Positions 36,976 through 64,000 of a stretch of 64,000 nucleotides of DNA are shown here, in pieces. The DNA is from Candidatus Kerfeldbacteria bacterium RIFCSPLOWO2_02_FULL_42_19 (GTDB taxonomy: Bacteria > Patescibacteriota > Patescibacteriia > HO2-48-17). Numbering within the stretch: position 1 is the stretch's first letter; every line of letters begins with the position of its first letter. Both the position numbers and the translations under genes were made by a program. The stretch spans positions 128,080-192,079 of the forward strand of contig MHKF01000012.1 of NCBI GenBank assembly GCA_001818315.1. The letters run 5' to 3'. The notes under the pieces were generated by a model. That model was given only the letters and a program-made list of their open reading frames with translations, was not told where the DNA came from and searched no databases.

Positions 36976-36987
36976 TTACCAAACTTC

Positions 36988-43692: not shown

Positions 43693-43700
43693 AGTCTGTG

Positions 43701-45077: not shown

Positions 45078-45253
45078 ATTATTTGAGCAATGGCATTAAA
45101 AAAATACTGACAATCAATAACAGATAGTAGACATTTATAGATATCAGACAAATTTAATTTTGTTTCAAGCAAAGTAATCATTTTTAAAAGTAGCCAGCTG
45201 TGACGAAGGTGAGAAATATTGGTGGTGTCCTATGTTTGTGCCTTATATCGTAA

Positions 45254-47399: not shown

Positions 47400-48233
47400 A
47401 TGGGTTCTGAATCAATAAAATACGAGATTACACCTCCAAAGGGACTTATAAGGTTCAACCTTCCGGAGATTTGGAGATTTAAGGACCTGTTTTATATTTT
47501 GGTCTGGCGAGATATTAAGGTTCGGTATAAGCAGACGGTTTTAGGTATTCTGTGGGCTCTGTTTCAGCCATTTTTGACGATGGTGATTTTTACTATCTTC
47601 TTTAGTGTTTTTGCAAAAGTTCCTTCCGATAACGCCCCTTATCCCATTTTTGTTTATTCTGGTTTGCTCTTTTGGAACTATTATTCGACCGCTCTAACGA
47701 ATGCGAGTAATTCACTTATCAATAATGAGGGGATTGTGCAAAAAGTCTATTTTCCGCGTCTCATTTTACCGATCTCAACTGTGTTGACACCGATAGCAGA
47801 CTTTATATTTGCCTTTTTTATTTTATTGGGATTAATGGTTTATTATCATTTTACCCCCGGAATTTTAGGCCTTCTGCTTGTACCTCTCTTGCTTCTCATT
47901 TCTATTTTCAGCGCTCTTGGGCTTGGATTATTACTCTCTGCTGTGAATACTAAATATCGAGATGTTCGCTACATCCTTCCTTTCTTTATGCAAATTTTAC
48001 TTTTTATTACGCCTGTCATTTATCCCGTCTCTATTATTCCAGAACAATTTCGCTGGTTGGCTTTCTTTAATCCAATGACCGGCGTGATCACTCTTGCTCG
48101 CAATGTTATTATCGGGGTAGGGGAAGTAAATTTCGGACACATTGGTGTTTCCGTATTCGTGAGTGTCGTTTTACTCTTCATTGGCCTCGCTTACTTTAGA
48201 AAAACAGAACGCTTCTTCGCCGACGTATTATAA
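47400..48233 (+). CDS. ABC-2 type polysaccharide/O-antigen export permease (Wzm/TagG-like)
   Basis: RDIKVRYKQTVLGILWALFQP signature, six TM segments. Confidence 0.7.
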   Translation: MGSESIKYEITPPKGLIRFNLPEIWRFKDLFYILVWRDIKVRYKQTVLGILWALFQPFLTMVIFTIFFSVFAKVPSDNAPYPIFVYSGLLFWNYYSTALTNASNSLINNEGIVQKVYFPRLILPISTVLTPIADFIFAFFILLGLMVYYHFTPGILGLLLVPLLLLISIFSALGLGLLLSAVNTKYRDVRYILPFFMQILLFITPVIYPVSIIPEQFRWLAFFNPMTGVITLARNVIIGVGEVNFGHIGVSVFVSVVLLFIGLAYFRKTERFFADVL

Positions 48234-48247
48234 GGTATTATGATACT

Positions 48248-49474
48248 ATGCAATCAATTATTCAAGTTGAAAAACTGAGCAAAAAATTTCATATTGGCCA
48301 AAAAGAGCACTACTATTCTTTGCGTGACTCCTTAGTGGATGCCATCACTTTTAGGCAGAAAAAAAAATATGATATCTTCTGGGCATTGAAAGATATTAAT
48401 TTTGAAGTTCAACCCGGCGAAGCACTGGGAATTATAGGCCGCAATGGAGCTGGTAAAAGCACTCTCTTGAAAATTCTTTCTCAGATCACTCCGCCGACCA
48501 CTGGGCGAATCAAAATTGGAGGACATGTAGCTTCTCTCTTAGAGGTCGGTACTGGTTTTCACCCAGAACTCACAGGCCATGAAAATATTTACTTAAACGG
48601 TGCAATTTTAGGTATGTCCCGTAAAGAAATAAAAAGAAAGTTCGATGAGATTGTGACTTTTGCTGAAATTGAAAAATTTCTCAATACGCCAGTGAAACGT
48701 TATTCTTCTGGAATGTATGTAAGACTCGCTTTCGCTGTGGCTGCCCATTTGGAACCGGAGATATTAGTAATCGACGAGGTTTTAGCAGTTGGCGATGTTC
48801 AGTTCCAAAGAAAATGCTTGAATAAAATGAATGAAATTTCTCAAAAAGATGACCGCACGGTTCTTTTTGTCAGCCACAATACAGGAGCTATCCAGACTCT
48901 ATGTGAACATTGCATCTTGCTTGATCAAGGAAAAATAATAATGCAAGGAGACACTCCGAGAGTCATTGAGAAGTATTTGAGAACATTTAATGACACAATA
49001 CTGATTGATCGTAAAGACAGAATCGGTAAAGGTGAAATCCGACTTACAGATGTCTCTTTCGAAAATTCTGCAGGAGAAGAAGTCGCATCTTTCATCTCAG
49101 AAAAAGACGCTATACTTAAGATAAGGTACGAATCGGTGAACAATTCAGACACAGATTTGAGAGATGTTGATATTGGCATTGGAATAGATGATAGTATTGG
49201 TCAGAGAATTGCTGGTCTATCTACAGTTGGTAATAAAAATTTTCCTGACCGCATTAAAAAGAGTGGTTTGTTTATATGTACCATCAAAACATTACCTTTG
49301 AATACGGGACGCTTTTATCTGACCTTGATTTTACGCCACAAGGGCGAGATTATGGATTGGATTCAGCAAGCTGCCTTTTTTGATGTTGAGAACCTGCAAA
49401 ATTTCAACTATGGCTCATCGCTCTCAAGATCAGACGGCCCTTTTTTAATTAATCATTTATGGACAGTACAATGA
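48248..49474 (+). CDS. polysaccharide ABC exporter ATP-binding protein (Wzt/TagH-like) with an extra C-terminal domain
   Basis: Walker A GIIGRNGAGKSTLL, YSSGMYVRLAFA signature, ILVIDEVLAVGD; ~150-aa C-terminal extension. Confidence 0.75.
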   Translation: MQSIIQVEKLSKKFHIGQKEHYYSLRDSLVDAITFRQKKKYDIFWALKDINFEVQPGEALGIIGRNGAGKSTLLKILSQITPPTTGRIKIGGHVASLLEVGTGFHPELTGHENIYLNGAILGMSRKEIKRKFDEIVTFAEIEKFLNTPVKRYSSGMYVRLAFAVAAHLEPEILVIDEVLAVGDVQFQRKCLNKMNEISQKDDRTVLFVSHNTGAIQTLCEHCILLDQGKIIMQGDTPRVIEKYLRTFNDTILIDRKDRIGKGEIRLTDVSFENSAGEEVASFISEKDAILKIRYESVNNSDTDLRDVDIGIGIDDSIGQRIAGLSTVGNKNFPDRIKKSGLFICTIKTLPLNTGRFYLTLILRHKGEIMDWIQQAAFFDVENLQNFNYGSSLSRSDGPFLINHLWTVQ

Positions 49475-50145
49475 TAGCGATTCAACAGTTCGTTTCAAAA
49501 ATCAGAGCTAGGTTTTTCAAATCTCAATATCTTGATCCCGATTTTGATAAACGAGGAGCAACGACCAACGAAGAAATTGATCTGTTTTGGCAAGACGAAC
49601 AAAGAGTCAAAGAGTACCTCGTTCAGGAACGTTTAGATTTCTTTCAGGAGGTAGCTCATAAAATACCTTATTCCGAAGATGTTAAATCAGTCATTGATAT
49701 CGGATGTGGCTCAGGACACGTTCTCTTCCATTATTCAAAGATACATCATATTAAGGAAGAAGCTCTCGTTGCGTGCGAAATCTCAATTCATGCTCTTTTG
49801 CAAGTGAATAAATTGCTTCCTAGGGTTAATCTACTAAGAGTTGATTTGCTTTTATTGCCCCATTTATTGAATCACAAGTTTGATTTGGCTATTGCTACTG
49901 AAATTCTCGAACACTTACAGCAACCCCAGAAGTACTTAAAGAGTATAATAGAGATACTGAATCTTGGAGGAAAAGTTCTCATTACTATCCCCAATGGTGA
50001 TCTCGACAATTGGAGCGGACACGTGAATTTCTGGAATAAGAATCAATTTAAAGAATTTCTTGGAAAATTCAATGAAATAGAGTTGGTATATTCGGAAACC
50101 TTATCAAGTAATGATCTTTTATTTGTAATTAAAAAAGTGAGATGA
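49459..50145 (+). CDS. class I SAM-dependent methyltransferase
   Basis: VIDIGCGSGHVLF motif I. Confidence 0.55.
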   Translation: MDSTMIAIQQFVSKIRARFFKSQYLDPDFDKRGATTNEEIDLFWQDEQRVKEYLVQERLDFFQEVAHKIPYSEDVKSVIDIGCGSGHVLFHYSKIHHIKEEALVACEISIHALLQVNKLLPRVNLLRVDLLLLPHLLNHKFDLAIATEILEHLQQPQKYLKSIIEILNLGGKVLITIPNGDLDNWSGHVNFWNKNQFKEFLGKFNEIELVYSETLSSNDLLFVIKKVR

Positions 50146-51203
50146 TGAGCATTAGTATGAAGACAGTTCATTTCGCCATCTTAGGGTGCGGTAAAATTGG
50201 TACAAGGCATGCCGAAAAAATGCGTAGTGTGGATTATGTACGTCTCAATGCTGTATGTGATATAGTCGGTGAAAAAGCAGATATTCTCTCAGAGAAGCAT
50301 GTTTGTAGATCCTATCACAGCATAGAACAGATGCTTAAAGACCCGGATATCGATTTTGTGAATATTTGCACTCCTTCAGGCTTACACGCACAGCACTCCA
50401 TCATGTGTTTAAATGCCGGCAAGAATGTTCTCTGTGAAAAACCAATGGCACTTACCGTAAAAGATGCTGTCAATATGCGCAAGGCAGCTGAGAAAAACGG
50501 TAAAATGTTGTATGTTGTCAAACAGAATCGGTACAATCCACCAGTCAAACTCGTGAAGCAATTGATCGACGAAAAAAAATTTGGCAGACCCATTTTGGCT
50601 GTGGTAAATATGTTCTGGAATAGAAACGACGATTATTACAAAAGCGATCCTTGGCGTGGAACATTAAAACTCGATGGTGGAACGATTTATACACAAGCAA
50701 GCCATTTTGTCGATTTGCTTCTTATGTTTTTGGGTAAACCAAAGTCTGTCTACGCTTTAATAGGAACAAAGAACCATAACATTGAAATTGAAGACACAGG
50801 AGTGATCACCGTACATTTTGAAAATGGTGCTTATGGAACAATGAATTATACTACTTGTGCCACAAAGAAGAATTTTGAAGGATCTATAACCCTCATCTTT
50901 TCCAAAGGCACTATTAAGATCGGCGGAGAGTATATTAATACCATCGAATACTTTCAAGTTGAAGGTGTAGATGGTTACGAACTAGAGCCCAGTGTAGTGG
51001 AAGCTAATGATTACGGTACATACCGTGGTTCTATGTCAAATCATCATGAAGTTTTTAAGGACATCGTCAGAAAGTTTAACAACAGTCAAGATAATGGTAA
51101 CCTTGTATATGGAGACGAAGCAATTGAGACTATCGCTTTAATTGAAAAAGCTTTGGAGTCAGCACGAAACGAAAAAATAATAACTATAAAAGATGAACTA
51201 TGA
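50142..51203 (+). CDS. Gfo/Idh/MocA-family NAD(P)-dependent sugar oxidoreductase (WbpB-like)
   Basis: N-terminal Rossmann segment HFAILGCGKIGTRHAEK; EKP motif. Confidence 0.65.
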   Translation: MMSISMKTVHFAILGCGKIGTRHAEKMRSVDYVRLNAVCDIVGEKADILSEKHVCRSYHSIEQMLKDPDIDFVNICTPSGLHAQHSIMCLNAGKNVLCEKPMALTVKDAVNMRKAAEKNGKMLYVVKQNRYNPPVKLVKQLIDEKKFGRPILAVVNMFWNRNDDYYKSDPWRGTLKLDGGTIYTQASHFVDLLLMFLGKPKSVYALIGTKNHNIEIEDTGVITVHFENGAYGTMNYTTCATKKNFEGSITLIFSKGTIKIGGEYINTIEYFQVEGVDGYELEPSVVEANDYGTYRGSMSNHHEVFKDIVRKFNNSQDNGNLVYGDEAIETIALIEKALESARNEKIITIKDEL

Positions 51204-52174
51204 AACAAGTTCGTATTCTTTTGACATCCGTTGGAGTTGAAACAGGTCCTAATGTCATTAATGCACTAAAAAAATCTTCTGACTTCACTCCATATATTAT
51301 TGGCACGGATAACGATCCTCTTGCTGCAGGTCTGTATTTATGTGATGAAAAAGTTATTGCCCCTAGGATAGATACGCCTGATTATATGTCACATCTTATG
51401 CAAGTTTGTCATACATACAGGGTTGATATCATTATTCCACTCCTCTCAAAGGAAATGCCTTTCTTTGCTAGTGCATCCCAACTCTTAAAAGAGAAAGCAG
51501 GAATTAAAATCGCGATTTCTGATCCAAAAACTATTCAACTTTGTGCAGATAAAAATTTGTTCGTGAAGTTCTTAATTGATCATAATATCCCAGCTCCTCG
51601 TGCTTTTGATGAGCAAGACATAAAGGAAACAGATTTTCCTCTCTTTGTCAAGCCTATTACTGGCAGTTCGAGTCGTTATGCTATTCGAGTGAATTCTCTT
51701 GCTGATCTTGAATATATCAAAAGAATTGCCGGTCCACTTTCCATTCAAGAATTACTCACCGGACCCGAGTACACCGTCGATACATTATGTGATTTAGAAG
51801 GTACATTGGTCACAGCCGTCATTAGGGAACGTCTTGAGGTTAAAGATGGTAAAGCAGTCAAAGGGCGTACAGTGAAAGATGATGATTTGATACAGCTTAT
51901 CAAGAATCTTGTAAGTTATGTGAAAATTATTGGTCCATCCAATATTCAATGCATTAAAAATCAAGGAATTTATACATTTTTTGAAATTAATACGCGCTTC
52001 TCTGCCGGTGGACTTCCTCTCACTGTTGTAGCAGGAGTCAATTTACCTGCTTTGCTTGTGAAAATACATCTTGGAATGGAAATTCATCCCGAAGAGTTGT
52101 TGTATAGAGAGAATGTATATATGAGCAGATATCTCACCGAGGTCTTTCCTCAACCAGTAAGGAATTTACTATGA
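51200..52174 (+). CDS. ATP-grasp domain protein (probable sugar-modifying ligase)
   Basis: Carbamoyl-phosphate-synthase-like ATP-grasp layout; sits inside a sugar-modification operon. Confidence 0.45.
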   Translation: MKQVRILLTSVGVETGPNVINALKKSSDFTPYIIGTDNDPLAAGLYLCDEKVIAPRIDTPDYMSHLMQVCHTYRVDIIIPLLSKEMPFFASASQLLKEKAGIKIAISDPKTIQLCADKNLFVKFLIDHNIPAPRAFDEQDIKETDFPLFVKPITGSSSRYAIRVNSLADLEYIKRIAGPLSIQELLTGPEYTVDTLCDLEGTLVTAVIRERLEVKDGKAVKGRTVKDDDLIQLIKNLVSYVKIIGPSNIQCIKNQGIYTFFEINTRFSAGGLPLTVVAGVNLPALLVKIHLGMEIHPEELLYRENVYMSRYLTEVFPQPVRNLL

Positions 52175-53175
52175 GAATAGCTGGTTCACAGATTCTCGTT
52201 ACAGGTGGTGCAGGATTTATCGGCTCTCATATAGTTGCATCACTTGTGAGAGATGGAGCTCGTGTGACAGTTTTTGATAATTTTAGCTTTGGACGCCATG
52301 AGAATTTATCCAAAATTGCGAATAATATTGAAGTAATAGAGGGAGATATTCTCGACGAAAAAAAACTTAATAAAGTAATGAAGGGTAAAAATATCGTTTC
52401 ACATCAAGCTGCGCAGTTGGAAATATTTTTAGCTAGCGCTGATCCGTACGCAGATCTTAAAATAAATACACTTGGAACCCTCAATGTTTTACAAGCCGCT
52501 CAAAAAAATGGTGTCGCTAAGGTAATTAATGCTTCATCCGCTTGCGTTTATGGACAAAAAAATGGTTCCGTAACTGAAGAGAGTATGCCTATACCAAATT
52601 GGGAATATGGTGTGAGTAAACTAGCTGCTGAAAGATATGGTACTATCTATTCAACTTATAAGAATTTACCAGTTGTTAGTTTGCGTTATGGTATTACTTA
52701 TGGTCCTAGAGAATGGTTTAGGCGCGTTTTGACGATATTCATTAAACGTGCAATTCAAGGAAAAGACTTAGTCATTTTCGGTGAAGGTGCACAAATCCGT
52801 GATTTTATCTCCGTCCACGATGTTGTCGCACTTCATAATTTCGCAATACAAGACGATATTTGTCAAGGAGATTCCTTTAATGTTGGTACCAATATCGGTA
52901 CAAGTATCAAGGAGCTTGCAGAAATAGTCATAAAAGTAACTGGTAGGAATTTAAAGATTCTCCACGAAGACATCAGAGAAGGTGAATTTTCTAAACTTGT
53001 TCCCGAGAAAAAACGCAATACTGCTGAACTTCAATGTATGCTTCTAGATTCGAGTAAAGCCACCAAAGTATTTAGGTGGAAACCGTTAGTATCTCTAGAA
53101 CAAGGCATACGAGAAGAATATGAATGGGCACAAGAAAATTTGAGCTTTTGGAAAAAAATACACTACTCAGCCTGA
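52171..53175 (+). CDS. NAD-dependent nucleotide-sugar epimerase/dehydratase (SDR family)
   Basis: ILVTGGAGFIGSH; YGVSK (Y-x3-K). Confidence 0.75.
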   Translation: MRIAGSQILVTGGAGFIGSHIVASLVRDGARVTVFDNFSFGRHENLSKIANNIEVIEGDILDEKKLNKVMKGKNIVSHQAAQLEIFLASADPYADLKINTLGTLNVLQAAQKNGVAKVINASSACVYGQKNGSVTEESMPIPNWEYGVSKLAAERYGTIYSTYKNLPVVSLRYGITYGPREWFRRVLTIFIKRAIQGKDLVIFGEGAQIRDFISVHDVVALHNFAIQDDICQGDSFNVGTNIGTSIKELAEIVIKVTGRNLKILHEDIREGEFSKLVPEKKRNTAELQCMLLDSSKATKVFRWKPLVSLEQGIREEYEWAQENLSFWKKIHYSA

Positions 53176-53185
53176 TTAGAAAAAC

Positions 53186-53899
53186 ATGAAAAAAGTTAAC
53201 ACGAGTTACTACCAATCCACAGACGGTCAGAACGTGAAAAGAATCTTAGTTGACTCCTATCTGATCTTTATTAACGAGATAATCGAGCAAGGCGATTTCA
53301 ACACCGTTATACAAATGGGTTATGGCGATGGTGAAGTGATTGAAAGACTGATGAACAAAGTCAAGCATGTTATCGTTATCGAGGGCGATTATGAGCTTTA
53401 CCGTAGAGCGATCGCTGAACACAAAAAAAATGATCATGTACTAATTATCAATTCTTTTTTTGAGCATTTTTTCCTAAAAAACAAAGTTGATCTTGTGCTC
53501 GGTAATCATGTTCTTGAACATGTTGATGATCCCGGCACTGTATTACATATGACTCGTCAGTGGCTCAAAAATACTGGTAAAGCGCTTTTTACTGTTCCAA
53601 ATGCTACATCTCTTCATCGTAGAATAGGTAAGGAAATGGGTTTATTGAAATCGATTTATGATTTGAACCCACAAGATCGCAAAGTTGGCCATCAAAGAGT
53701 TTATGATTGGCAATCATTTAATGATGAACTTCAAAATTCAGGTTACAAAATAATCAAAGCAGGTGGCTTTAACATTAAGTTGACATCACAAAAACAGATG
53801 AAAGATTGGTCTCATGAATTGTTGCGCGCTATTTTTTTAATTAGCCTCGAATGCCAACCACAAATATGCTCAAACCTTTATGCAATCTGCCGAAATTAA
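53186..53899 (+). CDS. class I SAM-dependent methyltransferase (type 11)
   Basis: VIQMGYGDGEVIERL; DLVLGNHVLEHVDDP. Confidence 0.5.
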   Translation: MKKVNTSYYQSTDGQNVKRILVDSYLIFINEIIEQGDFNTVIQMGYGDGEVIERLMNKVKHVIVIEGDYELYRRAIAEHKKNDHVLIINSFFEHFFLKNKVDLVLGNHVLEHVDDPGTVLHMTRQWLKNTGKALFTVPNATSLHRRIGKEMGLLKSIYDLNPQDRKVGHQRVYDWQSFNDELQNSGYKIIKAGGFNIKLTSQKQMKDWSHELLRAIFLISLECQPQICSNLYAICRN

Positions 53900-54533
53900 A
53901 AAATCACTCTTTGTCGATATAGATGGACCGATTCTGGACGTTTCTGAACGGTATTATAATGTCTATTATGATTTTTGTAGACAGAATAATATAAGGCCGG
54001 TTTCTAAAAAGTATTACTGGCAAAAGAGACGCAGGAAACAAAATGTCTCTCTGAAGTCTTCACTTACGGAGAAATATAAAGAATTTTGGATAAAAACAAT
54101 AGAACTACCACAATACACTCATTTTGACACCATACGTCCACACACGATTGAAGTTCTTGCTAAACTGCAGCAAAATTGTAATCTGTACGCCGTGTCACTC
54201 AGACAGAACGCAGAAACAGAAAAAAAAACATTAAAGCAATTTGGCGTTTCCGAATTTTTTAATAACATTTATATCGCGCCACCTTCCCTTTTTGAGACAA
54301 TGAAGAACTGGCGGATTAAAAGAGCATTAATTCATGAGATTGCGTCACTGGGTGATATAATCATTGGAGACACACCTACTGATATTAAATGTGGTCAAAG
54401 TTTAAGATTCATTACGGTTGCAGTGCTCTCAGGCATAACGAACTACAGTCTGCTTAAGTCTTATCAGCCTGATTACATTATTAGAAAAATTGATTCTCTT
54501 CCAAGATTATTAGATAGAAACAATTTGCTATGA
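53880..54533 (+). CDS. HAD-superfamily hydrolase
   Basis: Motif I LFVDIDGPILD; ~217 aa. Confidence 0.5.
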   Translation: MQSAEIKKSLFVDIDGPILDVSERYYNVYYDFCRQNNIRPVSKKYYWQKRRRKQNVSLKSSLTEKYKEFWIKTIELPQYTHFDTIRPHTIEVLAKLQQNCNLYAVSLRQNAETEKKTLKQFGVSEFFNNIYIAPPSLFETMKNWRIKRALIHEIASLGDIIIGDTPTDIKCGQSLRFITVAVLSGITNYSLLKSYQPDYIIRKIDSLPRLLDRNNLL

Positions 54534-56730: not shown

Positions 56731-57842
56731 AATTTCTCATCATTGATACATATTATCCCTCTTTTCTTAAAAGTTTCCGTCATAAGTATCCAGAATCATT
56801 GGGGATGTCTTATCAGGAACAACGGCAATTTTTACTTGATCAAAAATTCGGTACTTCGGATTTCTATTCTGGAAATTTCAAAAAGCTTGGGCATCAAGCT
56901 GAAGATATTATCGTGAATGATCTTTATCTTCAGTTTCGGTGGGCTCAAGAAAGAAATTTTTTTGTTTCTGAATCACGTTTTAAGGCTCGCATGCGGGTTT
57001 TACTTCGGGCTTATCATCTTCTTGGTCCACCGCGATGGATTCAAGAGATTGCTTTAGCTCAGATTCAAGAATATAAACCAGACATTATCTATATCCATAA
57101 TTTGACTATTTTTAGCCCTGATTATTTTCAAAAAATAAAAAAACAATGCCAATTCGTAGTTGGTCAAATTGCTTGTCCTCTACCGCCAAAAATATATTGG
57201 GAAAACTACGATCTGATTGTCACTTCATTTCCTCACTTTGTGCAAAGATTTCGCCAGCAAGGCATCAAGAGTGAATATTTAAAAATAGCTTTCGAACCTC
57301 ACATTCTTGACCTCGTTAGCAAACAGCCACGTATTTATAACGTTTCTTTTATTGGTAGTTATTCCTATCATCATAAGGGCGGGACGCAGATTCTGGAAGA
57401 TGTTGCACGGAAAGTGAAAGTTGATTTTTGGGGCCTGAAACAATTTTTCATGTCGCCATTCTCACCGATTGGTCGACGGTATCATGGAAGTGCATGGGGT
57501 CTCGATATGTATACTTTACTTGCTCAGAGCAGAATTGTTATTAACCGTCACATTGGCGCGGCTCAGAACTATGCTAATAACATGCGACTGTACGAATCAA
57601 CCGGAATGGGCGCTCTTTTAATTACTGACATGAAAGACAATTTGAATCATTTATTTCACATCGGCAAAGAGATTATTGCTTATTCGGATGTTGAGGATTT
57701 AGTTGATAAGATTCGTTACTATCTTGAACATGAGAAAGAACGCGCCGAGATTGCTCAGGCTGGACAACAGCGAACTCTTCAGGAGCATACGTATGAAAAC
57801 AGGATGAAGGAACTTTTAACTATTTTAGCAAAATATTTATGA
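56727..57842 (+). CDS. CgeB-like glycosyltransferase, paralog 2
   Basis: Collinear with the upstream paralog (YESTGMGALLITD…IAQAGQQRTLQEH). Confidence 0.45.
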   Translation: MKFLIIDTYYPSFLKSFRHKYPESLGMSYQEQRQFLLDQKFGTSDFYSGNFKKLGHQAEDIIVNDLYLQFRWAQERNFFVSESRFKARMRVLLRAYHLLGPPRWIQEIALAQIQEYKPDIIYIHNLTIFSPDYFQKIKKQCQFVVGQIACPLPPKIYWENYDLIVTSFPHFVQRFRQQGIKSEYLKIAFEPHILDLVSKQPRIYNVSFIGSYSYHHKGGTQILEDVARKVKVDFWGLKQFFMSPFSPIGRRYHGSAWGLDMYTLLAQSRIVINRHIGAAQNYANNMRLYESTGMGALLITDMKDNLNHLFHIGKEIIAYSDVEDLVDKIRYYLEHEKERAEIAQAGQQRTLQEHTYENRMKELLTILAKYL

Positions 57843-58507
57843 ACAAAGACAACCGTAATTATGTTTTTACTTCCGATTCCCTTTCAGAGAGAGATGAATA
57901 CCAGAGGATGGCTAGTTGGATTCCTGGTGGCAGTAGAGTGATTGATTTGGGGAGCGGCGATGGCTCACTTTTAGCGTTATTGCAGAAACGAGGCATTCAG
58001 GGTGAAGGAATTGAAATTGCTGAAAGCGGCGTCGAGATCACAAAAAAGAGGGGTATCAAAGCGCAAATTGGACGAATTGATGTGCCGTTGCCATATAAAG
58101 ATAAAGAATTTGATTATGCTCTTTGTAACGTGACCATACAGATGGTGATGTACCCGGAAGTATTACTGCAAGAAATGAAACGTATTGCAAAGTACCAAAT
58201 CCTTTCCTTTCCTAATTTCGCTTTTCTTCCCAATCGTCTTGACCTACTCATTCGTGGGCGAATGCCTCATTTCATGATTCCTAGTTATAAATGGTATTCC
58301 ACTGGGCATATTCATCAACTCTCTATCAATGATTTTTCCGATCTTTGTAAAGAATTAAATCTCAAAATTCTCGATTCCAAGCATATCCGTCCAGACGTAC
58401 TCAGGCTCCATATCTTCCAAGTCCCACATTTTATCTTAAGACGCTTTCCTAATGTATTCGTTAGTACCGCAATTTTTCTAACAAAAGAAAAGGAAATAGC
58501 GAAATAA
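57839..58507 (+). CDS. MetW-like class I SAM-dependent methyltransferase
   Basis: VIDLGSGDGSLLALL…GIEI…FDYALCNVTIQMV matches the MetW-type MTase pattern. Confidence 0.5.
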   Translation: MNKDNRNYVFTSDSLSERDEYQRMASWIPGGSRVIDLGSGDGSLLALLQKRGIQGEGIEIAESGVEITKKRGIKAQIGRIDVPLPYKDKEFDYALCNVTIQMVMYPEVLLQEMKRIAKYQILSFPNFAFLPNRLDLLIRGRMPHFMIPSYKWYSTGHIHQLSINDFSDLCKELNLKILDSKHIRPDVLRLHIFQVPHFILRRFPNVFVSTAIFLTKEKEIAK

Positions 58508-58590
58508 ATACAATATGTATATCCAAGAAAGATTCATTGTATGAAATCAGCGTATATGTTATATTCTTGCTGAGAATTGTAAAATATAAG

Positions 58591-58950
58591 ATGGCTTACA
58601 TTCTGTTAGTGCTTGCAATAGGAATGAACGTTACCGCACAACTTCTTCTCAAATATGTTGCGAAACAGATGCAATTTTTTGATGTTGCAGTGAATAAAGT
58701 TGTTCTGATAAAAACACTTCTTTTGCAACCGGCTTTTTGGATTGCATTAGTTTCGTATGGCATCAGCTTCGGGCTTTATTTAGTCGTGTTGTCAAAATTA
58801 GAATTGAGTAAAGCCTATCCGATCAGTAGTACTGCTGGCATTGTGCTTATTGTTGTTATATCCATTTTTACCTTTCATGAACCTTTGACGTTTCCCAAAA
58901 TTCTAGGCGTAGGATTAGGTTTGCTCGGTATTTTGTTATTATTTAAATAA
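58591..58950 (+). CDS. small 4-TM EamA/SMR-like transporter (ArnE/ArnF-like Und-P-sugar flippase subunit)
   Basis: 119 aa, four TM segments, directly upstream of a GT2 gene. Confidence 0.45.
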   Translation: MAYILLVLAIGMNVTAQLLLKYVAKQMQFFDVAVNKVVLIKTLLLQPAFWIALVSYGISFGLYLVVLSKLELSKAYPISSTAGIVLIVVISIFTFHEPLTFPKILGVGLGLLGILLLFK

Positions 58951-58952
58951 GC

Positions 58953-60356
58953 ATGCACTATCAGGCTATTGTTGAATTTATGAACCAACAAGCTGCTCGT
59001 CGTACGAAGTGGCGCGAGCGCAATTGGTATTATTACGAAGATCTCGTCAGTTTTTTACAATATAATGTCCCCCAAAATAGCCGAGTATTAGAAATTGGCT
59101 GTGGTGATGGCTATCTTTTACATCAGCTTCAACCCATGTATGGGGTTGGTATTGATATTGCCCCGGCCATGATTGAACAAGCTCAACAAAAATACCCTGA
59201 CTTGCATTTTTTTGTTATGGATGTTGAGCAACTGAAACTCCAAGAAACTTTCGATTATATTATTCTCTCTGATACTATTGGTTATTTTTATGATGTACAG
59301 AAGGTGTTAAATAATTTACGCAGCGTTTCTCATAGCGGGACAAGAGTGCTTATTACGTATCAAAATTTTTTGTGGTCACCGTTACTTCAACTCGTGGAAC
59401 TGCTCCATCTCAAAATGCCCTCTAAGAAATTGAATTGGCTCAATGTAGGCGATTTAGTGAATTTACTTAACTTAGAAAATTTTGAGGTTGTAAAAAGTGG
59501 TCATCGCTTACTTCTTCCATGGTATATTCCTTTCCTTTCAAAATTCATGAACAAATATTTGGCACACCTACCCTTATTGAATCAGTTGTGTTTGACGAGT
59601 TTTGTTATTGCCCGTCCTTGCATTCCAACGCAAGAATATAGTGTGAGTGTGATCATTCCAGCGCGCAATGAACGCGGTAATATTGAACAAGCTGTTCAAC
59701 GTATTCCTCACTTAGGGAAACACACAGAAATTATTTTTGTTGAAGGTCATTCCAATGATAATACTTTAACCGAAATTCAACGAGTGTGTCAGAACTATGC
59801 TGACAAACTTGACATCAAATATGCTGTACAAGACGGCAAGGGCAAAGGTGACGCGGTACGTAAAGGCTTTGCTATGGCTCACGGTGATATCTTGATGATT
59901 CTCGATGCTGATTTAACTGTTCGTCCAGAAGATTTGCCGAAATTTTATCAAGCTATCGCTTCGGGGAAAGGTGAATTTATCAATGGTTGTCGTTTAGTAT
60001 ACCCTATGGAAAAAGAGGCTATGCGTATTTTGAATATGATCGCAAATCGTTTTTTCTCTGTAACTTTTTCATGGTTATTGGGTCAGCGCATTAAAGATAC
60101 TCTCTGTGGCACGAAAGTCATTTGTAAAAAAGCCTATGAGCAATTAGCAAGTAATCGAGCATTTTTTGGTGATTTCGATCCATTTGGTGATTTTGATTTG
60201 TTATTCGGTGCAGCGAAGTTAAATTTAAAAATCGTAGAGTTACCCATACGTTACCAGGCACGAGTATACGGTTCAACGAATATTTCACGTTTCCGACACG
60301 GGTTTATTCTTTTGAAAATGGTCTTGTTTGCGATGAATAAAATTAAATTTATTTAA
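58953..60356 (+). CDS. fusion protein: N-terminal class I SAM methyltransferase plus C-terminal GT2 polyprenyl-phosphate glycosyltransferase (DPM1/ArnC/GtrB-like)
   Basis: VLEIGCGDGYLLHQL…ILSDTIGYF (MTase); VSVIIPARNERGNIEQAV…ILDADLT (GT2 DxD). Confidence 0.65.
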   Translation: MHYQAIVEFMNQQAARRTKWRERNWYYYEDLVSFLQYNVPQNSRVLEIGCGDGYLLHQLQPMYGVGIDIAPAMIEQAQQKYPDLHFFVMDVEQLKLQETFDYIILSDTIGYFYDVQKVLNNLRSVSHSGTRVLITYQNFLWSPLLQLVELLHLKMPSKKLNWLNVGDLVNLLNLENFEVVKSGHRLLLPWYIPFLSKFMNKYLAHLPLLNQLCLTSFVIARPCIPTQEYSVSVIIPARNERGNIEQAVQRIPHLGKHTEIIFVEGHSNDNTLTEIQRVCQNYADKLDIKYAVQDGKGKGDAVRKGFAMAHGDILMILDADLTVRPEDLPKFYQAIASGKGEFINGCRLVYPMEKEAMRILNMIANRFFSVTFSWLLGQRIKDTLCGTKVICKKAYEQLASNRAFFGDFDPFGDFDLLFGAAKLNLKIVELPIRYQARVYGSTNISRFRHGFILLKMVLFAMNKIKFI

Positions 60357-60412
60357 AAACTCATGCACTGGAAACAGTATGTTTTATTTGCACTTCTTAT
60401 AAGCTTCAACGC

Positions 60413-62353
60413 GTGTCGGCCTTCGATAATTCAAGAAATGAGTGTATGCAAGAAATAATATTCGTTACGATCATTCTTTTTGTCTGGGGTATTTTAAGTC
60501 TCGGTATCGGGCACTCCATCTTACGTAAATTATCTTGGCAAGCGAATGACGCTGTTTCTATCAGCATCGCTTATTTATTGGGTTTTGCTGTGTTGGCATA
60601 TAGTTTGGTGCTGTTAGGTTTAATCAAACTCTTTACGCTTCCGGCAGTCAGTATCGTAGGAGTTATCTATGTCGTACTTTTTGGACGAGGCGGTTTGCGC
60701 CAATTTTGGCAGTTCGTCATCAGCAGTGTGCATTTGAGTAAAAATATCTGGCGTACGCATCGTTGGTTGATAGTGCCGTTATTAGCTGTGGCAGTGTTTG
60801 TTCTCGTGAATTATCTTGCAAGTTTTGCTCCACCCACAGCACGCGATGAAATTTCTTATCATCTCCCAGAGGCGCGTGCACTCGTCTCAAGTCAGTCATT
60901 AGATTTTCTTACTAATGCTAAAAATTTTTATACGAATCTTCCACTCCTCTTAGAGGTCGTGTATGCCTGGGGTATTTTGGTGTCAGGCTATTCGTTGGCG
61001 CACGTCATGCACTACAGTATTTGGTTAGCTTTTTGCTTGTTTATATTTGGTTGGTTATACGAATATTTTGGTCGAACAACCGCGACGTGGTCGATAGTCG
61101 GTTTGTTTTTACTCACGCAAGTTGTGACTACGGCCACGAGCGGTTTAGTAGATACTGCCTATATGGTGCTCGAAATTATGAGCGTCTGTTTATTCATAAC
61201 TTGGTTTCATAGCAAACAAAATACAACTCTTGCCTTGGCTGGTATTATGATCGGCTTCGCTTTATCTATCAAATATTCTCCTCTCTTTACCGCTAGTTTA
61301 CTCGCTGTATTCATTGCAGGTGTCAGCTTTCCCCGACGTCAGTGGAGACCATTCATTTGGTTTGTATTACCTGTTGTCTTGGTTGGAGGATTTTGGTACA
61401 TCAAAAATTTCATTGTTTATTTCAATCCTACCTATCCGCTCCTCTTCGGACATGCCGACTATGGTGAAGCGGAATATCTTTCATTGATCGCAGCGATCCA
61501 AGATTTTGTTGTACCGCGAACGTTGTGGAATTATGTACAGATTCCGGTAACTTTTTATTTAGCTTGGACCAAGAGTGATTATCCACTCCTGTCGTTATCC
61601 TATCAACCCCAAAGCCTGATTGTATTGTTCAGTCTTGCCAGTTTGCCTTGGCTAATTGCACTCAAACGAGCCAGATTGGTCGTTCTGATACTGTTTTCTT
61701 ATATGATTGTCTATAGTTTGTATTGGTTCTTTATTGCGACTCATCAAGTACGTTTTTTGGATACAATTACTATTGTGCTGCTGTTGTTAGCAGTTATTGC
61801 TATTACCCGCTTGCCACGATATTGGAAATATGTGCCGGTCGCCATTTTATTCATTGCCATCATCGGTATTGGCTTACGTTACGATATTCGGAGTTATTTG
61901 CTCCATGTGATAGACGCCGCTATCGCTCAGCGCTGGATGCGTAAAAATGAAATTTATTACTTGATTGATCACATGAGTAAAAAGGATTATTTGGAATCGC
62001 ACTTTGGTTGCGGGGTATTAGCTCTTGACTACCTGGATACTACAAATCCAAACGTCAAGGTGTTAGATAATTGGACCGCATGGCATGATCACCAATTTAA
62101 GTTTTACGATCAGCACAGTCGTTTCATCAGTTTTCCGCCTGATTTGCCAGTTACAGATGTCAACAGCTTTATTCAAAGTAATGGTATTGGCTATATTTAT
62201 TTTGATACGAGAGCTAAAAATGATTTTGCGAATAGTACCGATCCATTTTTCAGGGAACACTATCGCGCCCGGTCAAACCAAGAACAACAATTGCTCGACG
62301 GCGCTACTTTGGTATTTGAATCAACTACCTGTCAACTCCATCGTTTACGATAA
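60413..62353 (+). CDS. polytopic GT-C-like membrane protein (ArnT/PMT-like glycosyltransferase candidate)
   Basis: ≥12 TM segments; ARDEISYHLPEA loop with a DE motif after the early TM segments; follows the GT2 and flippase genes. Confidence 0.5.
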   Translation: MSAFDNSRNECMQEIIFVTIILFVWGILSLGIGHSILRKLSWQANDAVSISIAYLLGFAVLAYSLVLLGLIKLFTLPAVSIVGVIYVVLFGRGGLRQFWQFVISSVHLSKNIWRTHRWLIVPLLAVAVFVLVNYLASFAPPTARDEISYHLPEARALVSSQSLDFLTNAKNFYTNLPLLLEVVYAWGILVSGYSLAHVMHYSIWLAFCLFIFGWLYEYFGRTTATWSIVGLFLLTQVVTTATSGLVDTAYMVLEIMSVCLFITWFHSKQNTTLALAGIMIGFALSIKYSPLFTASLLAVFIAGVSFPRRQWRPFIWFVLPVVLVGGFWYIKNFIVYFNPTYPLLFGHADYGEAEYLSLIAAIQDFVVPRTLWNYVQIPVTFYLAWTKSDYPLLSLSYQPQSLIVLFSLASLPWLIALKRARLVVLILFSYMIVYSLYWFFIATHQVRFLDTITIVLLLLAVIAITRLPRYWKYVPVAILFIAIIGIGLRYDIRSYLLHVIDAAIAQRWMRKNEIYYLIDHMSKKDYLESHFGCGVLALDYLDTTNPNVKVLDNWTAWHDHQFKFYDQHSRFISFPPDLPVTDVNSFIQSNGIGYIYFDTRAKNDFANSTDPFFREHYRARSNQEQQLLDGATLVFESTTCQLHRLR

Positions 62354-62392
62354 TGGAGCTGCCGTTGAATCCCGTTTCTTGTACAATGTGCA

Positions 62393-62477
62393 AAGCAAAA
62401 GAGGAGGAAGGCGAGAGCTTCCGAAGCACTGACAGTGCACAGTGTGCTTCGGAAGCTCTCGCCTTCCTCCTCTTTTG
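62393..62477. repeat. Family-B hairpin repeat, copy 4 (between convergent genes)
   Basis: aaaagaggaggaaggcgagagcttccgaagcactgacagtgcacagtgtgcttcggaagctctcgccttcctcctcttttg. Confidence 0.6.
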
Positions 62478-62665
62478 TCTATAATCACAATGTATTTTTC
62501 ACAGGCGGAAGCGTATTCAGCTGCAGTCCTTTAATAATCCGAAGCTTTGAGTTTACCTATCACAAATAAAAGCGCATCGAATCGGATCGGTGCATATACC
62601 CATAACTGTCCACAATCCTGCATATAGGCTAAAACTTGATTTTTCCCTGCGCTCTTGGCGCAGGG

Positions 62666-63037
62666 TCATTCATTGACAATGACACTCATGAGGAGTACGA
62701 CTGCTGCAGTGATTTTTGATTGAGTCAAAGCTCTACGAAGCCAGTACCACAAGGTTTGCCAAAGGCGACGACATTCACGGGTAATTGTCTTTATAAAGGC
62801 AATCCACAGTAGTCCAAAGATGCTATAGACAACTGTCGCTTTAAACTGTCCTATCAATCCCAGTAATAATCCAATATTTCCTAAGATACCCAGACCAATA
62901 AGATACGCTACACTCACAATGACTGCGTAGTGGTGCTCAAAGCGCAACCGACGCAATAACGACATTCCCATGCCGATAGCGAGGCTACTGAAAAAGAATG
63001 CTAGTAAAGTATTAGAAACGATGGAAATGATACTCAT
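62666..63037 (-). pseudogene. truncated N-terminal fragment (123 aa) of a GT-C-like membrane-protein paralog
   Basis: LRRLRFEHHYAVIVSVAYLIGLGILGNIGLLLGLIGQF parallels LRKLSWQANDAVSISIAYLLGFAVLAYSLVLLGLIKLF at the N-terminus of the 60413 gene; a stop follows after 123 aa. Confidence 0.4.
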
Positions 63038-63654
63038 TTCAACGCGAACACGAAGTTATTTAAACCAAGTTGCCAGGTACTCGTTTTTATTTTTTCTTGT
63101 TTGAATCCAGCTTGGGCAAGTAGATCGCGCAGGTCTTGATCGGACATATAACATTTGTGATCAGAAATTTCTGTAGCATCCGTGACATGCAAACGAAAAG
63201 CTAAAAGTTCTAGTAATGGCTTATTCGCTGGTGTTGGTGTTGTGAGTAATAGTCTCCCATTCGGTTTTAAGATGCGATACACTTCACGCAAATGTTGCTG
63301 ACGATCCGATAAATGTTCAAGCACAGCTAATGAAGTTACTACATCCATAGCGTTATCTGGCAGCGGGATATGTTGATTCACATTAGCTGGTTGTAATGTT
63401 ACTCGATCATTCGATAGTTGCGTATCAACTGCAATATCAAAACCATAGGCTTTTGTAAATCGATCTTGGTACGTAAATAAAAATCGTCCGCGATATCCGC
63501 AGCCCATATCACATACTATGCTCCTCTCTGGGATAGAACGAATAACATGTTGCATTCGAAGATGAGCCAGAAAATCTTCGAGCCAATAACGTTTTGTCTG
63601 ACCATGTGATGTAGTGCGGTGATCATGGTTATGATGGTGATGTGTCTCGCTCAT
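63034..63654 (-). CDS. class I SAM-dependent methyltransferase (type 11)
   Basis: IVCDMGCGYRGRFL motif I; DVVTSLAVLEHL. Confidence 0.6.
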   Translation of the reverse strand: MSETHHHHNHDHRTTSHGQTKRYWLEDFLAHLRMQHVIRSIPERSIVCDMGCGYRGRFLFTYQDRFTKAYGFDIAVDTQLSNDRVTLQPANVNQHIPLPDNAMDVVTSLAVLEHLSDRQQHLREVYRILKPNGRLLLTTPTPANKPLLELLAFRLHVTDATEISDHKCYMSDQDLRDLLAQAGFKQEKIKTSTWQLGLNNFVFALK

Positions 63655-63663
63655 AGAATATTA

Positions 63664-64000
63664 TTATTTATGAATTTTTGCCATATTTTTTTGTACTGCT
63701 GCTTCCAATTCACTAAAACGTCGGTTGATGGTACTGATAACAAAACCAGTTAATGCCACGAACACACTGACTAATACTAACCCAACCGCTAGTACTGCAG
63801 TTGGTAAACGCAACACTAAACCAGTACGGAAAAATTCAGAAATCACTATACTCCCAGTAATGACACCGGGTATAAAAAATAATAAAGCCAATAAAATAAA
63901 GAACTTTATCGGACGATAATCCCGCAAAATTTGAAAAATGGTCAGTAAAATTTTTGTACCATCCCGGAAGGTATGAAGTTTCGAAACGCTTCCGGCTGGT
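63664..64000 (-). CDS. C-terminal part of a GT2 GtrB/ArnC-like glycosyltransferase (partial; runs off the window edge)
   Basis: The frame stays open to nt 64000; the C-terminus has two TM helices and RTGLVLRLP, which is typical of the membrane-anchoring tail of polyprenyl-phosphate GT2 enzymes. Confidence 0.35.
   Translation of the reverse strand, partial: PAGSVSKLHTFRDGTKILLTIFQILRDYRPIKFFILLALLFFIPGVITGSIVISEFFRTGLVLRLPTAVLAVGLVLVSVFVALTGFVISTINRRFSELEAAVQKNMAKIHK

Follow-up and report, generated by a model that had tools for sequence, protein, structure and literature searches.

Gene content and composition of the locus

The window analysed here, a stretch of DNA of 64,000 nucleotides, contains a glycan island whose genes serve to make a sugar polymer of the cell surface, export it and decorate it. 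The host is an uncultured member of the Kerfeldbacteria (CPR/Patescibacteria), identified by its RpoD, which has 100% identity with that of a Candidatus Kerfeldbacteria MAG. The island is real but broadly ordinary; unusual in it are methyltransferases coupled to lipid-sugar donor enzymes and two undescribed membrane glycosyltransferase families. Pfam and NCBIfam searches of the window ORFs reproduced all domain assignments of a preliminary description of this DNA, and its reading as a surface-glycan locus is supported. On the plus strand the genes run Wzm, Wzt, methyltransferase (MT), GFO, ATP-grasp, SDR, MT, HAD and DegT, and a three-part set runs SMR, MT–GT2 fusion and GT-C; the order given previously was wrong, as the ATP-grasp, SDR, MT and HAD genes precede DegT and the SMR gene precedes the fusion. 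Between the convergent operons lies an inverted repeat (62396–62477) with perfectly matching 34-bp arms and a loop of 14 nt, which occurs once in the window and is likely a bidirectional terminator.

The GC content is 0.382 at positions 47400–62353 compared to 0.444 at positions 1–40000, and the drop is seen in each of the three codon positions (GC3 being 0.34 against 0.42), so that GC is not uniform across the window. At 38.2%, the island is as low in GC as described, but the first 40 kb have 44.4% and not the 45–50% given before. The low-GC block starts at approximately 41–42 kb, making the island larger than first described, and takes in two more GT-C-fold genes (42067–45077) that had gone unlisted. 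The window ORFs scanned include neither a phosphoglycosyltransferase for initiation nor a polymer ligase of the LCP or Wzy_C type, nor a ruler/terminator resembling WbdD. Since the CPR, the group to which the Kerfeldbacteria belong, are reported to be without LPS (PMC5220378), the locus is not an O-antigen locus, and the earlier O-antigen and Arn analogies need re-framing.

Export and nucleotide-sugar genes

The exporter consists of the ABC-2 permease Wzm (47400–48233, +; PF01061 ABC2_membrane, E 4e-20), with galactan Wzm/RfbD and KpsM as best NCBIfam matches and 53–56% identity to the Wzm of related loci, and Wzt (48248–49474, +), which carries ABC_tran and Wzt_C domains (the latter at residues 256–384, E 3e-18) and resembles, over its full length, the Aquifex aeolicus Wzt with its CBD (8dku, residues 14–388, E 4e-75).

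The sugar pathway includes a WlbA/WbpB-like nucleotide-sugar 3-dehydrogenase (50142–51203, +) with both the N- and C-terminal GFO_IDH_MocA domains. It matches 3q2i (E 6e-68) and 3q2k (E 1e-59), which we take to be WlbA structures, and, under cut-off, the NCBIfam archaeal UDP-GlcNAc 3-dehydrogenase (E 3e-31). Its counterpart is a sugar aminotransferase of the DegT family (54530–55627, +; PF01041, E 6e-122) that resembles 3-aminotransferases, matching 7b0d (E 9e-114), QdtB and WbpE (E 1e-95 to 4e-82, with QdtB 3frk at 2e-95 and WbpE 3nu7 at 4e-82) and NtdA, so that the assignment of the pair to the 3-amino type, like that of the DegT domain itself, was upheld. Of the WbpB/WbpE analogy, the dehydrogenase/aminotransferase pair therefore stands, but equivalents of WbpA, WbpD and WbpI are absent. 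Three further genes are an ATP-grasp ligase (51200–52174, +; PylC-like N domain, ATPgrasp_Ter, PRK12767 'CPS-like'), whose sole PDB relative is 2pn1 (E 8e-36); an SDR resembling nucleotide-sugar 4-epimerases (52171–53175, +; Epimerase, E 6e-53), with UDP-hexose, UDP-GlcNAc and UDP-GlcA 4-epimerases as best PDB matches (4zrm, 6wjb, 6zl6, 6kv9); and a HAD-family hydrolase or phosphatase (53880–54533, +; HAD_2, Hydrolase_like). Two Glyco_trans_1_2 (CgeB-type) glycosyltransferases follow on the plus strand, paralog a (55627–56730; PF13524, E 2e-30) and paralog b (56727–57842; PF13524, E 2e-34), which are 48% identical; the related loci L001, L002 and L006 have one ortholog each, and paralog b has no sequence relative in the PDB.

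Methyltransferases

All six methyltransferases lie where they had been placed. Besides the fusion described below, they are a class I enzyme of the Methyltransf_24 family (45254–46084, −; PF13578, E 3e-17), two class I SAM methyltransferases at 49459–50145 (+; Methyltransf_23/12/11), which has no homolog in related loci, and 53186–53899 (+; Methyltransf_23/11), a MetW-like enzyme (57839–58507, +; PF07021, E 1e-46) scoring 162 bits with TIGR02081, under its cut-off of 189.5, and a 206-aa class I methyltransferase (63034–63654, −; Methyltransf_23/11). The last is kept beside GT2 and GT-C genes: it is 75–76% identical in L001 and L002, and homologs of 40–42% identity lie directly between a GT2 and a GT-C gene in L004 and L006. 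Three of the six have lipid-sugar GT2 or GT-C genes as their partners, not polymer genes. The heavily methylated glycan proposed previously is a possible reading of their number.

Polyprenyl-phosphate glycosyltransferases and the SMR protein

The fusion (58953–60356, +) joins an N-terminal class I methyltransferase (MT domains at residues 26–181; motif VLEIGCGDG) to a C-terminal DPM1/AglJ/ArnC-like GT2, the presence of Glycos_transf_2 (residues 232–373; motif ILDADL) agreeing with its earlier assignment. In NCBIfam it matches AglJ at E 3e-30 and, at E 3e-13, Dol-P hexose transferase, neither of them reaching cut-off; its PDB matches are DPMS 5mlz (E 2e-14) and ArnC 9bhc (E 5e-9). Against curated cut-offs, the similarity to ArnC and DPMS, like that to AglJ, falls short. 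No TM helices were found, whereas GtrB and ArnC have them. The second GT2, of the GtrB/AglJ type, runs past the window end, leaving the C-terminal 111 aa with two TM helices in its translation (63664–64000, −). This part shares 82% identity with a GT2 of 310 aa in L001, for which AglJ (E 3e-69), Dol-P hexose transferase and the polyprenyl-P-GalNAc synthase PpgS are matches, all under cut-off. The fused and GtrB-type GT2s align end to end, and the top matches of the GT2 domains are polyprenyl-phosphate transferases only (DPMS, ArnC, AglJ, PpgS).

Metagenomes contain no fewer than 331 full-length relatives of the fusion. In the 51 metagenome loci with such homologs and adequate flanks, a same-strand protein of at least 400 aa and at least 6 TM segments was found within 300 bp in 27, and a protein of this size and topology within 2.5 kb in 40. 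Such neighbours match the HMM of the 541-aa family described below in nine metagenome loci (within 2.5 kb); among those that do not, three sampled proteins score above the Pfam PMT_2 cut-off, one of them representing a 9-member cluster. A Wzm/Wzt pair is only occasionally found nearby.

Directly upstream of the fusion, a 4-TM protein of the SMR family (58591–58950, +; Multi_Drug_Res, E 2e-10) matches ArnF at E 3e-10 and, more weakly, ArnE at E 3e-6, in each case under cut-off, and is a candidate flippase for a lipid-linked sugar. In L004, an ortholog of 50% identity lies between the MT–GT2 gene and a 534-aa GT-C-fold gene of the 541-aa family, in one operon, but of 80 metagenome loci with the fusion only 2 also have an SMR gene as its partner.

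GT-C-fold membrane proteins

The 541-aa polytopic membrane protein (42067–43692, −) belongs to an undescribed family without a Pfam model: it has no match in Pfam or NCBIfam, and none of its 61 homologs has a Pfam domain. Its AlphaFold model (pLDDT 91.8) has a GT-C fold, with ArnT 5f15 (E 8e-6), Pmt4, STT3 and AftB as top Foldseek matches, and D48, Y53 and H71-P72-G73-T74, after the first TM helix, are invariant in the family. Homologs are located directly downstream of MT–GT2 fusions in L001 and L004, and downstream of them also in the nine metagenome loci mentioned above. A tandem paralog of 458 aa (43701–45077, −), 54% identical and without the C-terminal soluble domain, shares with the 541-aa gene two patches of approximately 160 nt that are 91–92% identical in DNA, which, at the sequence level, indicates gene conversion between the two. 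A chimeric variant of the pair (P0011) is also found in the database.

The third protein (60446–62353, +) has 635 aa, or 646 aa from a GTG at 60413. Neither Pfam, NCBIfam nor the PDB gave a sequence match, and its assignment as a GT-C glycosyltransferase, proposed previously, holds at the level of predicted fold, in a model of moderate confidence only (pLDDT 77.6; input alignment of six sequences). As in the 541-aa family, a TM helix is followed by a conserved motif with an invariant Asp. Across phyla, polyprenyl-phosphate GT2s flank the members of this family: in Patescibacteria a GT2, in some cases together with a methyltransferase, lies directly before the homologs, in Anaerolineae a methyltransferase lies directly before them, and in Proteobacteria a GtrB-like GT2 directly after. 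Fold and conserved gene neighbourhood together make the GT2/4-TM/GT-C set plausible as a glycosylation system of three components. Finally, a 123-aa ORF (62666–63037, −) is, by sequence similarity, what remains of the N-terminal part of another GT-C paralog: it shares 31% identity with the start of the 635-aa protein and 34% (E 2e-16) with the N-terminus of the 543-aa GT-C paralog in L001. No GT-C similarity follows downstream, and no stand-alone homolog occurs in 108 loci. Sequence comparison thus agrees with the edge genes as first listed (GT-C remnant, methyltransferase and GtrB/AglJ-type GT2).

Proposed pathway and alternatives

We lean towards a glycan that contains a 3-amino sugar, is exported by the ABC transporter and is decorated outside the membrane from lipid-phosphate-sugar donors, the cytoplasmic steps being read from family membership and the outside steps from fold and synteny. 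The dehydrogenase and aminotransferase would yield a 3-amino (2,3-diamino-type) nucleotide sugar, which may be tailored by the SDR, ATP-grasp ligase, HAD phosphatase and two methyltransferases. As there is no WbpD-type acetyltransferase, the ATP-grasp enzyme probably forms an amide, either with the 3-amino group, which it would acylate, or with the carboxylate of a uronate; the uronate is the conjectural one of the two, since no UDP-GlcNAc 6-dehydrogenase is present. Carried on a polyprenyl lipid, the chain would be assembled by the two Glyco_trans_1_2 enzymes and might receive a cap from one methyltransferase, and the finished chain would be recognised by the C-terminal module of Wzt and exported through Wzm/Wzt. 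In parallel, the two GT2s, each with a methyltransferase partner (one fused, one adjacent), would charge polyprenyl phosphate with a sugar, the SMR protein may flip this donor, and the GT-C-fold enzymes (635-aa; 541/458-aa pair) would transfer the sugar to the exported polymer, their putative acceptor.

The same GT2 and methyltransferase pairs could instead supply lipid-linked sugar to GT-C-fold enzymes whose acceptors are proteins (S-layer protein, pilins), as they are for PMT, AglS and AglB, a reading that we regard as unlikely. The fusion might also be a cytoplasmic bifunctional enzyme rather than a lipid-phosphate-sugar synthase, elongating the polymer and placing a methyl cap at its non-reducing end for the Wzt module. 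It has the architecture of WsaE of Geobacillus stearothermophilus, which ends chain growth with a methyl cap (PMC2943079), with an N-terminal methyltransferase followed by a GT2 and without TM helices, in a locus that has a Wzt_C module and no other obvious terminator. However, its GT2 matches are not glycan-elongating enzymes, its homologs are more closely tied to GT-C-type membrane proteins than to Wzm/Wzt, and L004, with its operon of fusion, SMR and GT-C-fold genes, has no Wzm/Wzt in the 21.5 kb examined, making this role improbable. The three GT-C-fold genes and remnant in the window, the 4–5 GT-C paralogs plus GT87 genes in a single locus of relatives, and fold matches that include AftA, AftB, AftD, EmbB and PimE recall mycobacterial lipomannan, LAM and arabinan, where such enzymes use polyprenyl-P-monosaccharide donors to polymerise a lipoglycan outside the membrane and not mere side chains. 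This is very unlikely here, as the cytoplasmic GT-B type enzymes and the exporter, a complete Wzm/Wzt pair with a CBM, argue for a polymer made inside and exported, and the Emb, Aft and PimE matches score below ArnT.

Horizontal exchange of the island, as suggested in the preliminary description, would be consistent with the GC drop and the differing cassettes of relatives. That low GC is simply what glycan and membrane-protein genes of this lineage normally show, and no evidence of transfer, we hold possible rather than probable: further dips to ~0.40 occur at 4–7 kb and 17–19 kb of the window, the closest homologs of conserved island genes come from Patescibacteria MAGs, and low GC has been reported for S-layer glycan and LPS clusters in general (PMC2943079). 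Against this, the drop extends to all three codon positions, gene remnants flank the operons, and the nucleotide-sugar cassette varies among relatives, L004 having RmlA/B-FdtA-DegT in its place.

Organisation of the glycan locus

ORF mapping of the 42-64 kb region, combined with Pfam and NCBIfam scans, established the domain content of the locus. Every domain named in the preliminary description was recovered and all six methyltransferase coordinates given there were correct, but the gene order it proposed was not borne out. On the plus strand, the genes form a single tightly packed operon, many of them overlapping by a few bases. According to their Pfam/NCBIfam matches, they encode Wzm (47400-48233), Wzt with a Wzt_C module (48248-49474), a class I methyltransferase (49459-50145), a Gfo/Idh/MocA oxidoreductase (GFO, 50142-51203), an ATP-grasp protein (51200-52174), an SDR (52171-53175), a second class I methyltransferase (53186-53899), a HAD hydrolase (53880-54533) and a DegT aminotransferase (54530-55627). 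These are followed by two CgeB-type Glyco_trans_1_2 glycosyltransferases (55627-57842; 48% identical to each other; PF13524 at 106.3 and 118.9 bits, cut-off 25), and, again from Pfam/NCBIfam, a MetW-like methyltransferase (57839-58507), a 4-TM protein of the SMR family (58591-58950) and a methyltransferase-GT2 fusion (MT-GT2, 58953-60356), and then by a 635-aa polytopic protein (60446-62353). A Methyltransf_24 gene (45254-46084) lies upstream of the Wzm/Wzt operon.

Convergent to the plus-strand operon, a minus-strand operon of three genes reaches the window edge. It comprises a partial GT2 gene, the translation of which (63664 to beyond 64000) gave a C-terminus with two TM helices, a 206-aa methyltransferase (63034-63654) and a 123-aa ORF (62666-63037). 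Between the two operons, arms of 34 bp form a perfect inverted repeat around a 14-nt loop (62396-62429 / 62444-62477). It is unique within the window and probably a bidirectional terminator, though unusually long. Scans for consensus promoters and terminators gave counts not above the shuffled expectation, and the only Rfam match was a tRNA-Asn. Bordering the Wzm/Wzt operon on its left side, a 233-aa ORF (46361-47062, minus strand) aligns with PEPCK_ATP over the C-terminal third alone (profile positions 298-456 of 465), with nothing PEPCK-like upstream of it, and looks like a gene remnant.

Two families of GT-C-fold membrane proteins

The 635-aa protein had no sequence match in Pfam, NCBIfam or the PDB, profile search included. 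Its AlphaFold model, built with six homologs (pLDDT 77.6, pTM 0.82), retrieved only GT-C enzymes as top Foldseek hits (STT3, ArnT, ALG9, AftA, PMT and PglB), and the family alignment revealed invariant P130, D134 and Y138-H139-L140-P141 after a TM helix. The predicted structure thus has a GT-C fold whose first outside loop carries a conserved acidic residue, which supports assignment of the protein as a GT-C at the fold level; among solved structures, ArnT is the closest. Compared with ArnT (GT83), the model is extended at its N-terminus by approximately 100 residues that include TM helices, and it ends in a small alpha/beta domain. An apparent extreme rarity of the family (9 matches in a word-index search) was dismissed as a limit of the word index, since an exhaustive HMM search gave 490 clusters at E<=1e-30 and 11,419 at E<=1e-3.

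Two further GT-C-type genes, absent from the preliminary gene list, are located on the minus strand. These encode a 541-aa protein (42067-43692), recognised by its predicted fold, and a 458-aa tandem paralog (43701-45077), which sequence comparison showed to be 54% identical to it. Neither protein matched Pfam, and none of the 61 detected homologs carried a Pfam domain. The model of the 541-aa family (34-sequence alignment, pLDDT 91.8) had its best fold matches in ArnT (E 8e-6), Pmt4, STT3 and AftB, and D48, Y53 and H71-P72-G73-T74 are invariant in this family. As none of the three window proteins (635, 541 and 458 aa) matched the PF13231, PF02366 or ArnT models above threshold, their link to PMT_2 / ArnT (GT83) is at the fold level only. 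In a profile-profile comparison (hhalign) of the 635-aa and 541-aa families, only the C-terminal soluble domains matched (probability 80%, approximately 70 columns), and the two groups were therefore treated as separate families. The weak similarity of these domains hints at an acceptor-binding module shared by both.

Within the tandem paralogs, two pairs of patches of approximately 160 nt each (42683-42846 / 44065-44228 and 43442-43602 / 44824-44984) show 91-92% DNA identity, which in proteins only 54% identical indicates gene conversion. A database protein (P0011) is a chimera, joining the N-terminus of one tandem paralog to the body of the other. Two related genome loci, L001 and L002, each contain four to five GT-C-fold paralogs together with GT87-family genes. 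The label of L001, 'uncultured Gammaproteobacteria', may reflect an error in binning or taxonomy, as the remaining close homologs are from MAGs of Patescibacteria.

The 123-aa ORF at the window edge is 34% identical (E 2e-16) to the N-terminus of a 543-aa GT-C paralog of L001 and 31% identical to the N-terminus of the 635-aa protein, and no further GT-C coding sequence is found downstream of it. A stand-alone, flippase-like module was considered and rejected: none of 108 loci contained a stand-alone homolog, and the best match was the N-terminus of a full-length GT-C paralog. The earlier reading of this ORF as a GT-C remnant thereby held.

Putative lipid-sugar GT2s and a conserved MT-GT2/GT-C unit

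The edge GT2 shares 82% identity with a 310-aa GT2 of L001, which in turn best matched AglJ (E 3e-69), a Dol-P hexose transferase and the polyprenyl-P-GalNAc synthase PpgS. The GT2 domain of the MT-GT2 fusion aligns end to end with the same L001 protein and matched DPMS (5mlz, 2e-14), ArnC (5e-9), AglJ (3e-30) and a Dol-P hexose transferase. On sequence comparison, these matches show kinship of both GT2s to polyprenyl-phosphate transferases without placing them in a named family, as all of them fell below the curated cut-offs. The fusion has no TM helices, and its SAM motif (VLEIGCGDG) and DAD motif are intact. The SMR protein, encoded by a single gene, scored 41.4 bits in Pfam (cut-off 23.7) and 40.4 bits against ArnF, which is below the cut-off of 99.

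Gene neighbourhoods were read in the genome loci fetched with the 635-aa family. Homologs of this protein in Patescibacteria (L004, L006-L009) have a short GT2 directly 5', and in L004 and L006 the GT2 and GT-C genes flank a methyltransferase of 200-210 aa. In L010 and in Anaerolineae (L014, L015, L019) a methyltransferase lies directly upstream of the homolog, while in Proteobacteria (L012, L020-L023, L026) a GtrB-like GT2 directly follows it. The L004 operon encodes an MT-GT2 (66% identical), an SMR protein (50%) and a 541-family protein, and in L001 the MT-GT2 likewise adjoins a 541-family protein.

The fusion has at least 331 relatives in metagenomes, of which 80 were fetched (full length, 51-66% identity), and neighbours were counted over the 51 loci whose flanks extend for at least 1.5 kb on each side. 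A same-strand protein of at least 400 aa with at least six TM segments was found within 300 bp of the MT-GT2 in 27 of these loci, rising to 40 within 2.5 kb. Nine of the large membrane neighbours matched the 541-family HMM. Ten others were sampled, of which three had PMT_2 above the Pfam cut-off (one representing a nine-member cluster), one matched PMT_2 weakly (representing a three-member cluster), one carried C-terminal TPR repeats and one was an unrelated M50 peptidase. Genomic linkage of GT2, methyltransferase and GT-C genes is thus established. Since it recurs across loci while an SMR partner was seen beside homologous fusions at two loci only, the conserved unit is the MT-GT2 fusion plus a GT-C-type protein.

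Nucleotide-sugar cassette

The closest PDB matches of GFO were 3q2i (E 6e-68) and 3q2k (E 1e-59), which we take to be WlbA, UDP-GlcNAcA 3-dehydrogenases, with WbpB further down the match list. DegT matched the 3-aminotransferases QdtB (2e-95), WbpE (4e-82) and also NtdA, and the closest structures to the SDR were UDP-hexose, UDP-GlcNAc and UDP-GlcA 4-epimerases. The locus thus encodes the Gfo/Idh/MocA 3-dehydrogenase and DegT 3-aminotransferase pair of a WbpB/WbpE-type pathway, and the three sets of matches lend support to the 3-amino sugar proposed in the preliminary description. While the WlbA-like dehydrogenase and WbpE-like aminotransferase are shared with the WbpA-B-E-D-I / WlbA-C pathway to UDP-2,3-diacetamido-2,3-dideoxy-mannuronic acid, no equivalents of WbpA (6-dehydrogenase), WbpD (N-acetyltransferase) or WbpI (2-epimerase) were found among the scanned window ORFs, nor any member of the UDP-glucose/GDP-mannose dehydrogenase, hexapeptide transferase or 2-epimerase families. 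The product is therefore not classical 2,3-diacetamido-mannuronate, and it must differ since ATP-grasp, HAD, 4-epimerase-like SDR and two methyltransferases take the place of these enzymes.

The ATP-grasp protein combines a PylC-like N domain, ATPgrasp_Ter and PRK12767, and its sole PDB relative is an uncharacterised protein. Given the missing N-acetyltransferase, we infer that it makes an amide, on either the 3-amino group or a uronate carboxylate. In the HS:2 capsule of Campylobacter jejuni, an ATP-grasp enzyme amidates glucuronate with a phosphorylated amine, the phosphate of which is stripped by a HAD enzyme (PMC11800379). The Cj1438 amidoligase and Cj1435 phosphatase thus share with the window the presence of ATP-grasp and HAD in one glycan locus, but the likeness is an analogy only, since Cj1438C is TupA-like and the window protein of the PylC-like / ATPgrasp_Ter / PRK12767 type. 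We found no direct precedent in the literature for an ATP-grasp role in such a cassette. The cassette varies among relatives: GFO, ATP-grasp, HAD, the two methyltransferases and the MetW-like methyltransferase are without counterpart in the related loci, which carry others, such as RmlA/RmlB/FdtA/DegT in L004.

Export and proposed assembly of the glycan

An ABC-2 permease (PF01061) and an ATPase (PF00005) are encoded together as Wzm and Wzt. Residues 14-388 of Wzt align with full-length Aquifex aeolicus Wzt (8dku, E 4e-75) including its carbohydrate-binding domain, and Wzt_C was detected at residues 256-384 (66.6 bits, cut-off 30.4). In described systems, this module recognises a cap at the non-reducing end, often a methyl group (PMC2943079, PMC11127046). 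In Pfam, none of the six methyltransferases present has a kinase domain or a coiled-coil ruler, and no initiating polyprenyl-phosphate phosphoglycosyltransferase or polymer ligase was found among the scanned window ORFs; these genes may lie outside the window. Wzm and a Wzt with Wzt_C are shared with ABC-dependent O-antigen and S-layer pathways (E. coli O8/O9a, Aquifex aeolicus Wzm-Wzt, Geobacillus stearothermophilus slg). The slg clusters have tight gene overlaps, low GC and internal methyltransferases (PMC2943079), as does the window locus. Unlike in these pathways, neither a WbdD-like kinase/methyltransferase bearing a coiled-coil ruler, nor a ligase of the WsaB or Wzy_C kind, nor an initiating transferase was found in the window, and its putative polymerising glycosyltransferases are of the Glyco_trans_1_2 (CgeB) type.

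Taken together, the locus could operate as follows. A 3-amino sugar nucleotide with an ATP-grasp-formed amide would be made in the cytoplasmic cassette's reactions and the glycan polymerised by the two Glyco_trans_1_2 enzymes, and Wzm/Wzt would export the polymer once the Wzt module has recognised the chain. The two GT2s would charge polyprenyl phosphate with sugar, the SMR protein would flip the lipid-linked sugar, and the GT-C enzymes would transfer it onto the exported polymer. The fusion might instead be WsaE-like, elongating and capping the chain in the cytoplasm, but its conserved pairing with a GT-C-type protein speaks against this and favours a role in supplying a lipid-linked donor. 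Under such a donor role, we consider it possible, if on the unlikely side, that the GT2-coupled methyltransferase methylates the sugar while still on its lipid carrier, and that the GT-C then transfers the pre-methylated sugar to the surface glycan. ArnD deformylation and DprE epimerisation of lipid-linked donors are parallels for such a modification. The three-component systems described in the literature contain no methyltransferase-coupled step, and no direct precedent was found.

The closest of these systems are GtrA/GtrB/Gtr* (Shigella, Salmonella), ArnC/ArnEF/ArnT, Klebsiella O2 gmlABC, Citrobacter GT136 and the streptococcal GacI-L / Scc GT-Cs. As in these systems, the window encodes a GT2 (here a putative polyprenyl-phosphate transferase), a candidate flippase with four TM segments and a GT-C-fold protein together, at the locus of an ABC-transporter-dependent polymer (PMC11127046); the Citrobacter system likewise has an EmrE/ArnE-like 4-TM protein (PMC11127046). 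Polymers that leave the cell through an ABC transporter and are then decorated by a three-component system are well known, examples being those of Klebsiella O2 and Citrobacter O1/O2 and the streptococcal rhamnose polysaccharides (PMC11127046), and current understanding is not overturned here. The window differs in that a methyltransferase is fused to or beside each GT2, TM helices are missing from the fused GT2, and the GT-C families lack Pfam models; a flippase gene is also mostly absent beside homologous fusions. The host also differs: it belongs to the CPR, in which lipid A and LPS genes are reported absent and envelope formation is called unclear (PMC5220378), and the O-antigen and Arn comparisons are for this reason mechanistic analogies only. 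New here are the CPR host, the methyltransferase coupling, the two GT-C families and the unusual nucleotide-sugar cassette. The locus provides a concrete parts list for one CPR/Patescibacteria surface glycan, and the two families are candidates for family classifications. The conserved pairing of MT-GT2 with a GT-C-type membrane protein, seen over hundreds of contigs from metagenomes, suggests that extracytoplasmic glycosylation includes a step yet to be characterised. If methylation does occur on the lipid carrier, this would define a widespread 'methyl-glycosylation' variant of the three-component system that works with the two GT-C families.

Composition and remainder of the window

The locus is compositionally distinct, with a GC content of 0.382 (47400-62353) against 0.444 for positions 1-40000, a drop that affects each of the three codon positions (GC3 0.34 vs 0.42). 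The GC contrast reported earlier is thus real, albeit from a baseline of 44% and not 45-50%. Similarly, the region from 47400 onward is low in GC as described, but the block starts earlier, near 41 kb (0.399 for 41000-45100), so that the two GT-C genes at 42067-45077 and the Methyltransf_24 gene belong to the same island.

Other genes in the window encode DnaG, RpoD, ParB, a bacterial-type PGI, a ROK kinase, two glycogen synthases and two GH57 enzymes. RpoD shows 100% identity to its counterpart in a Candidatus Kerfeldbacteria MAG, and all of the following hits belong to Kerfeldbacteria or Patescibacteria, which places the host in the CPR. An alpha-glucan cluster in this CPR genome spans 18041-24894 on the plus strand, where genes for two glycogen/starch synthases, two GH57 proteins (one of which carries a UVR motif) and a GalT/HIT-like protein come after the tRNA-Asn. 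A 947-aa ORF (7102-9945, minus strand) has the highest GC of the window (0.50) and no significant Pfam match. A 607-aa protein (25361-27184, minus strand) contains only sigma-70 regions 2 and 4 and far exceeds the usual length of an alternative sigma factor. Finally, an unusual pyrimidine-metabolism pair is encoded at 35680-38517 on the plus strand, consisting of a long-form dCTP deaminase and a 509-aa fusion of MtrA-like, thymidylate-synthase-like and PterinBD-DUF4346 parts.
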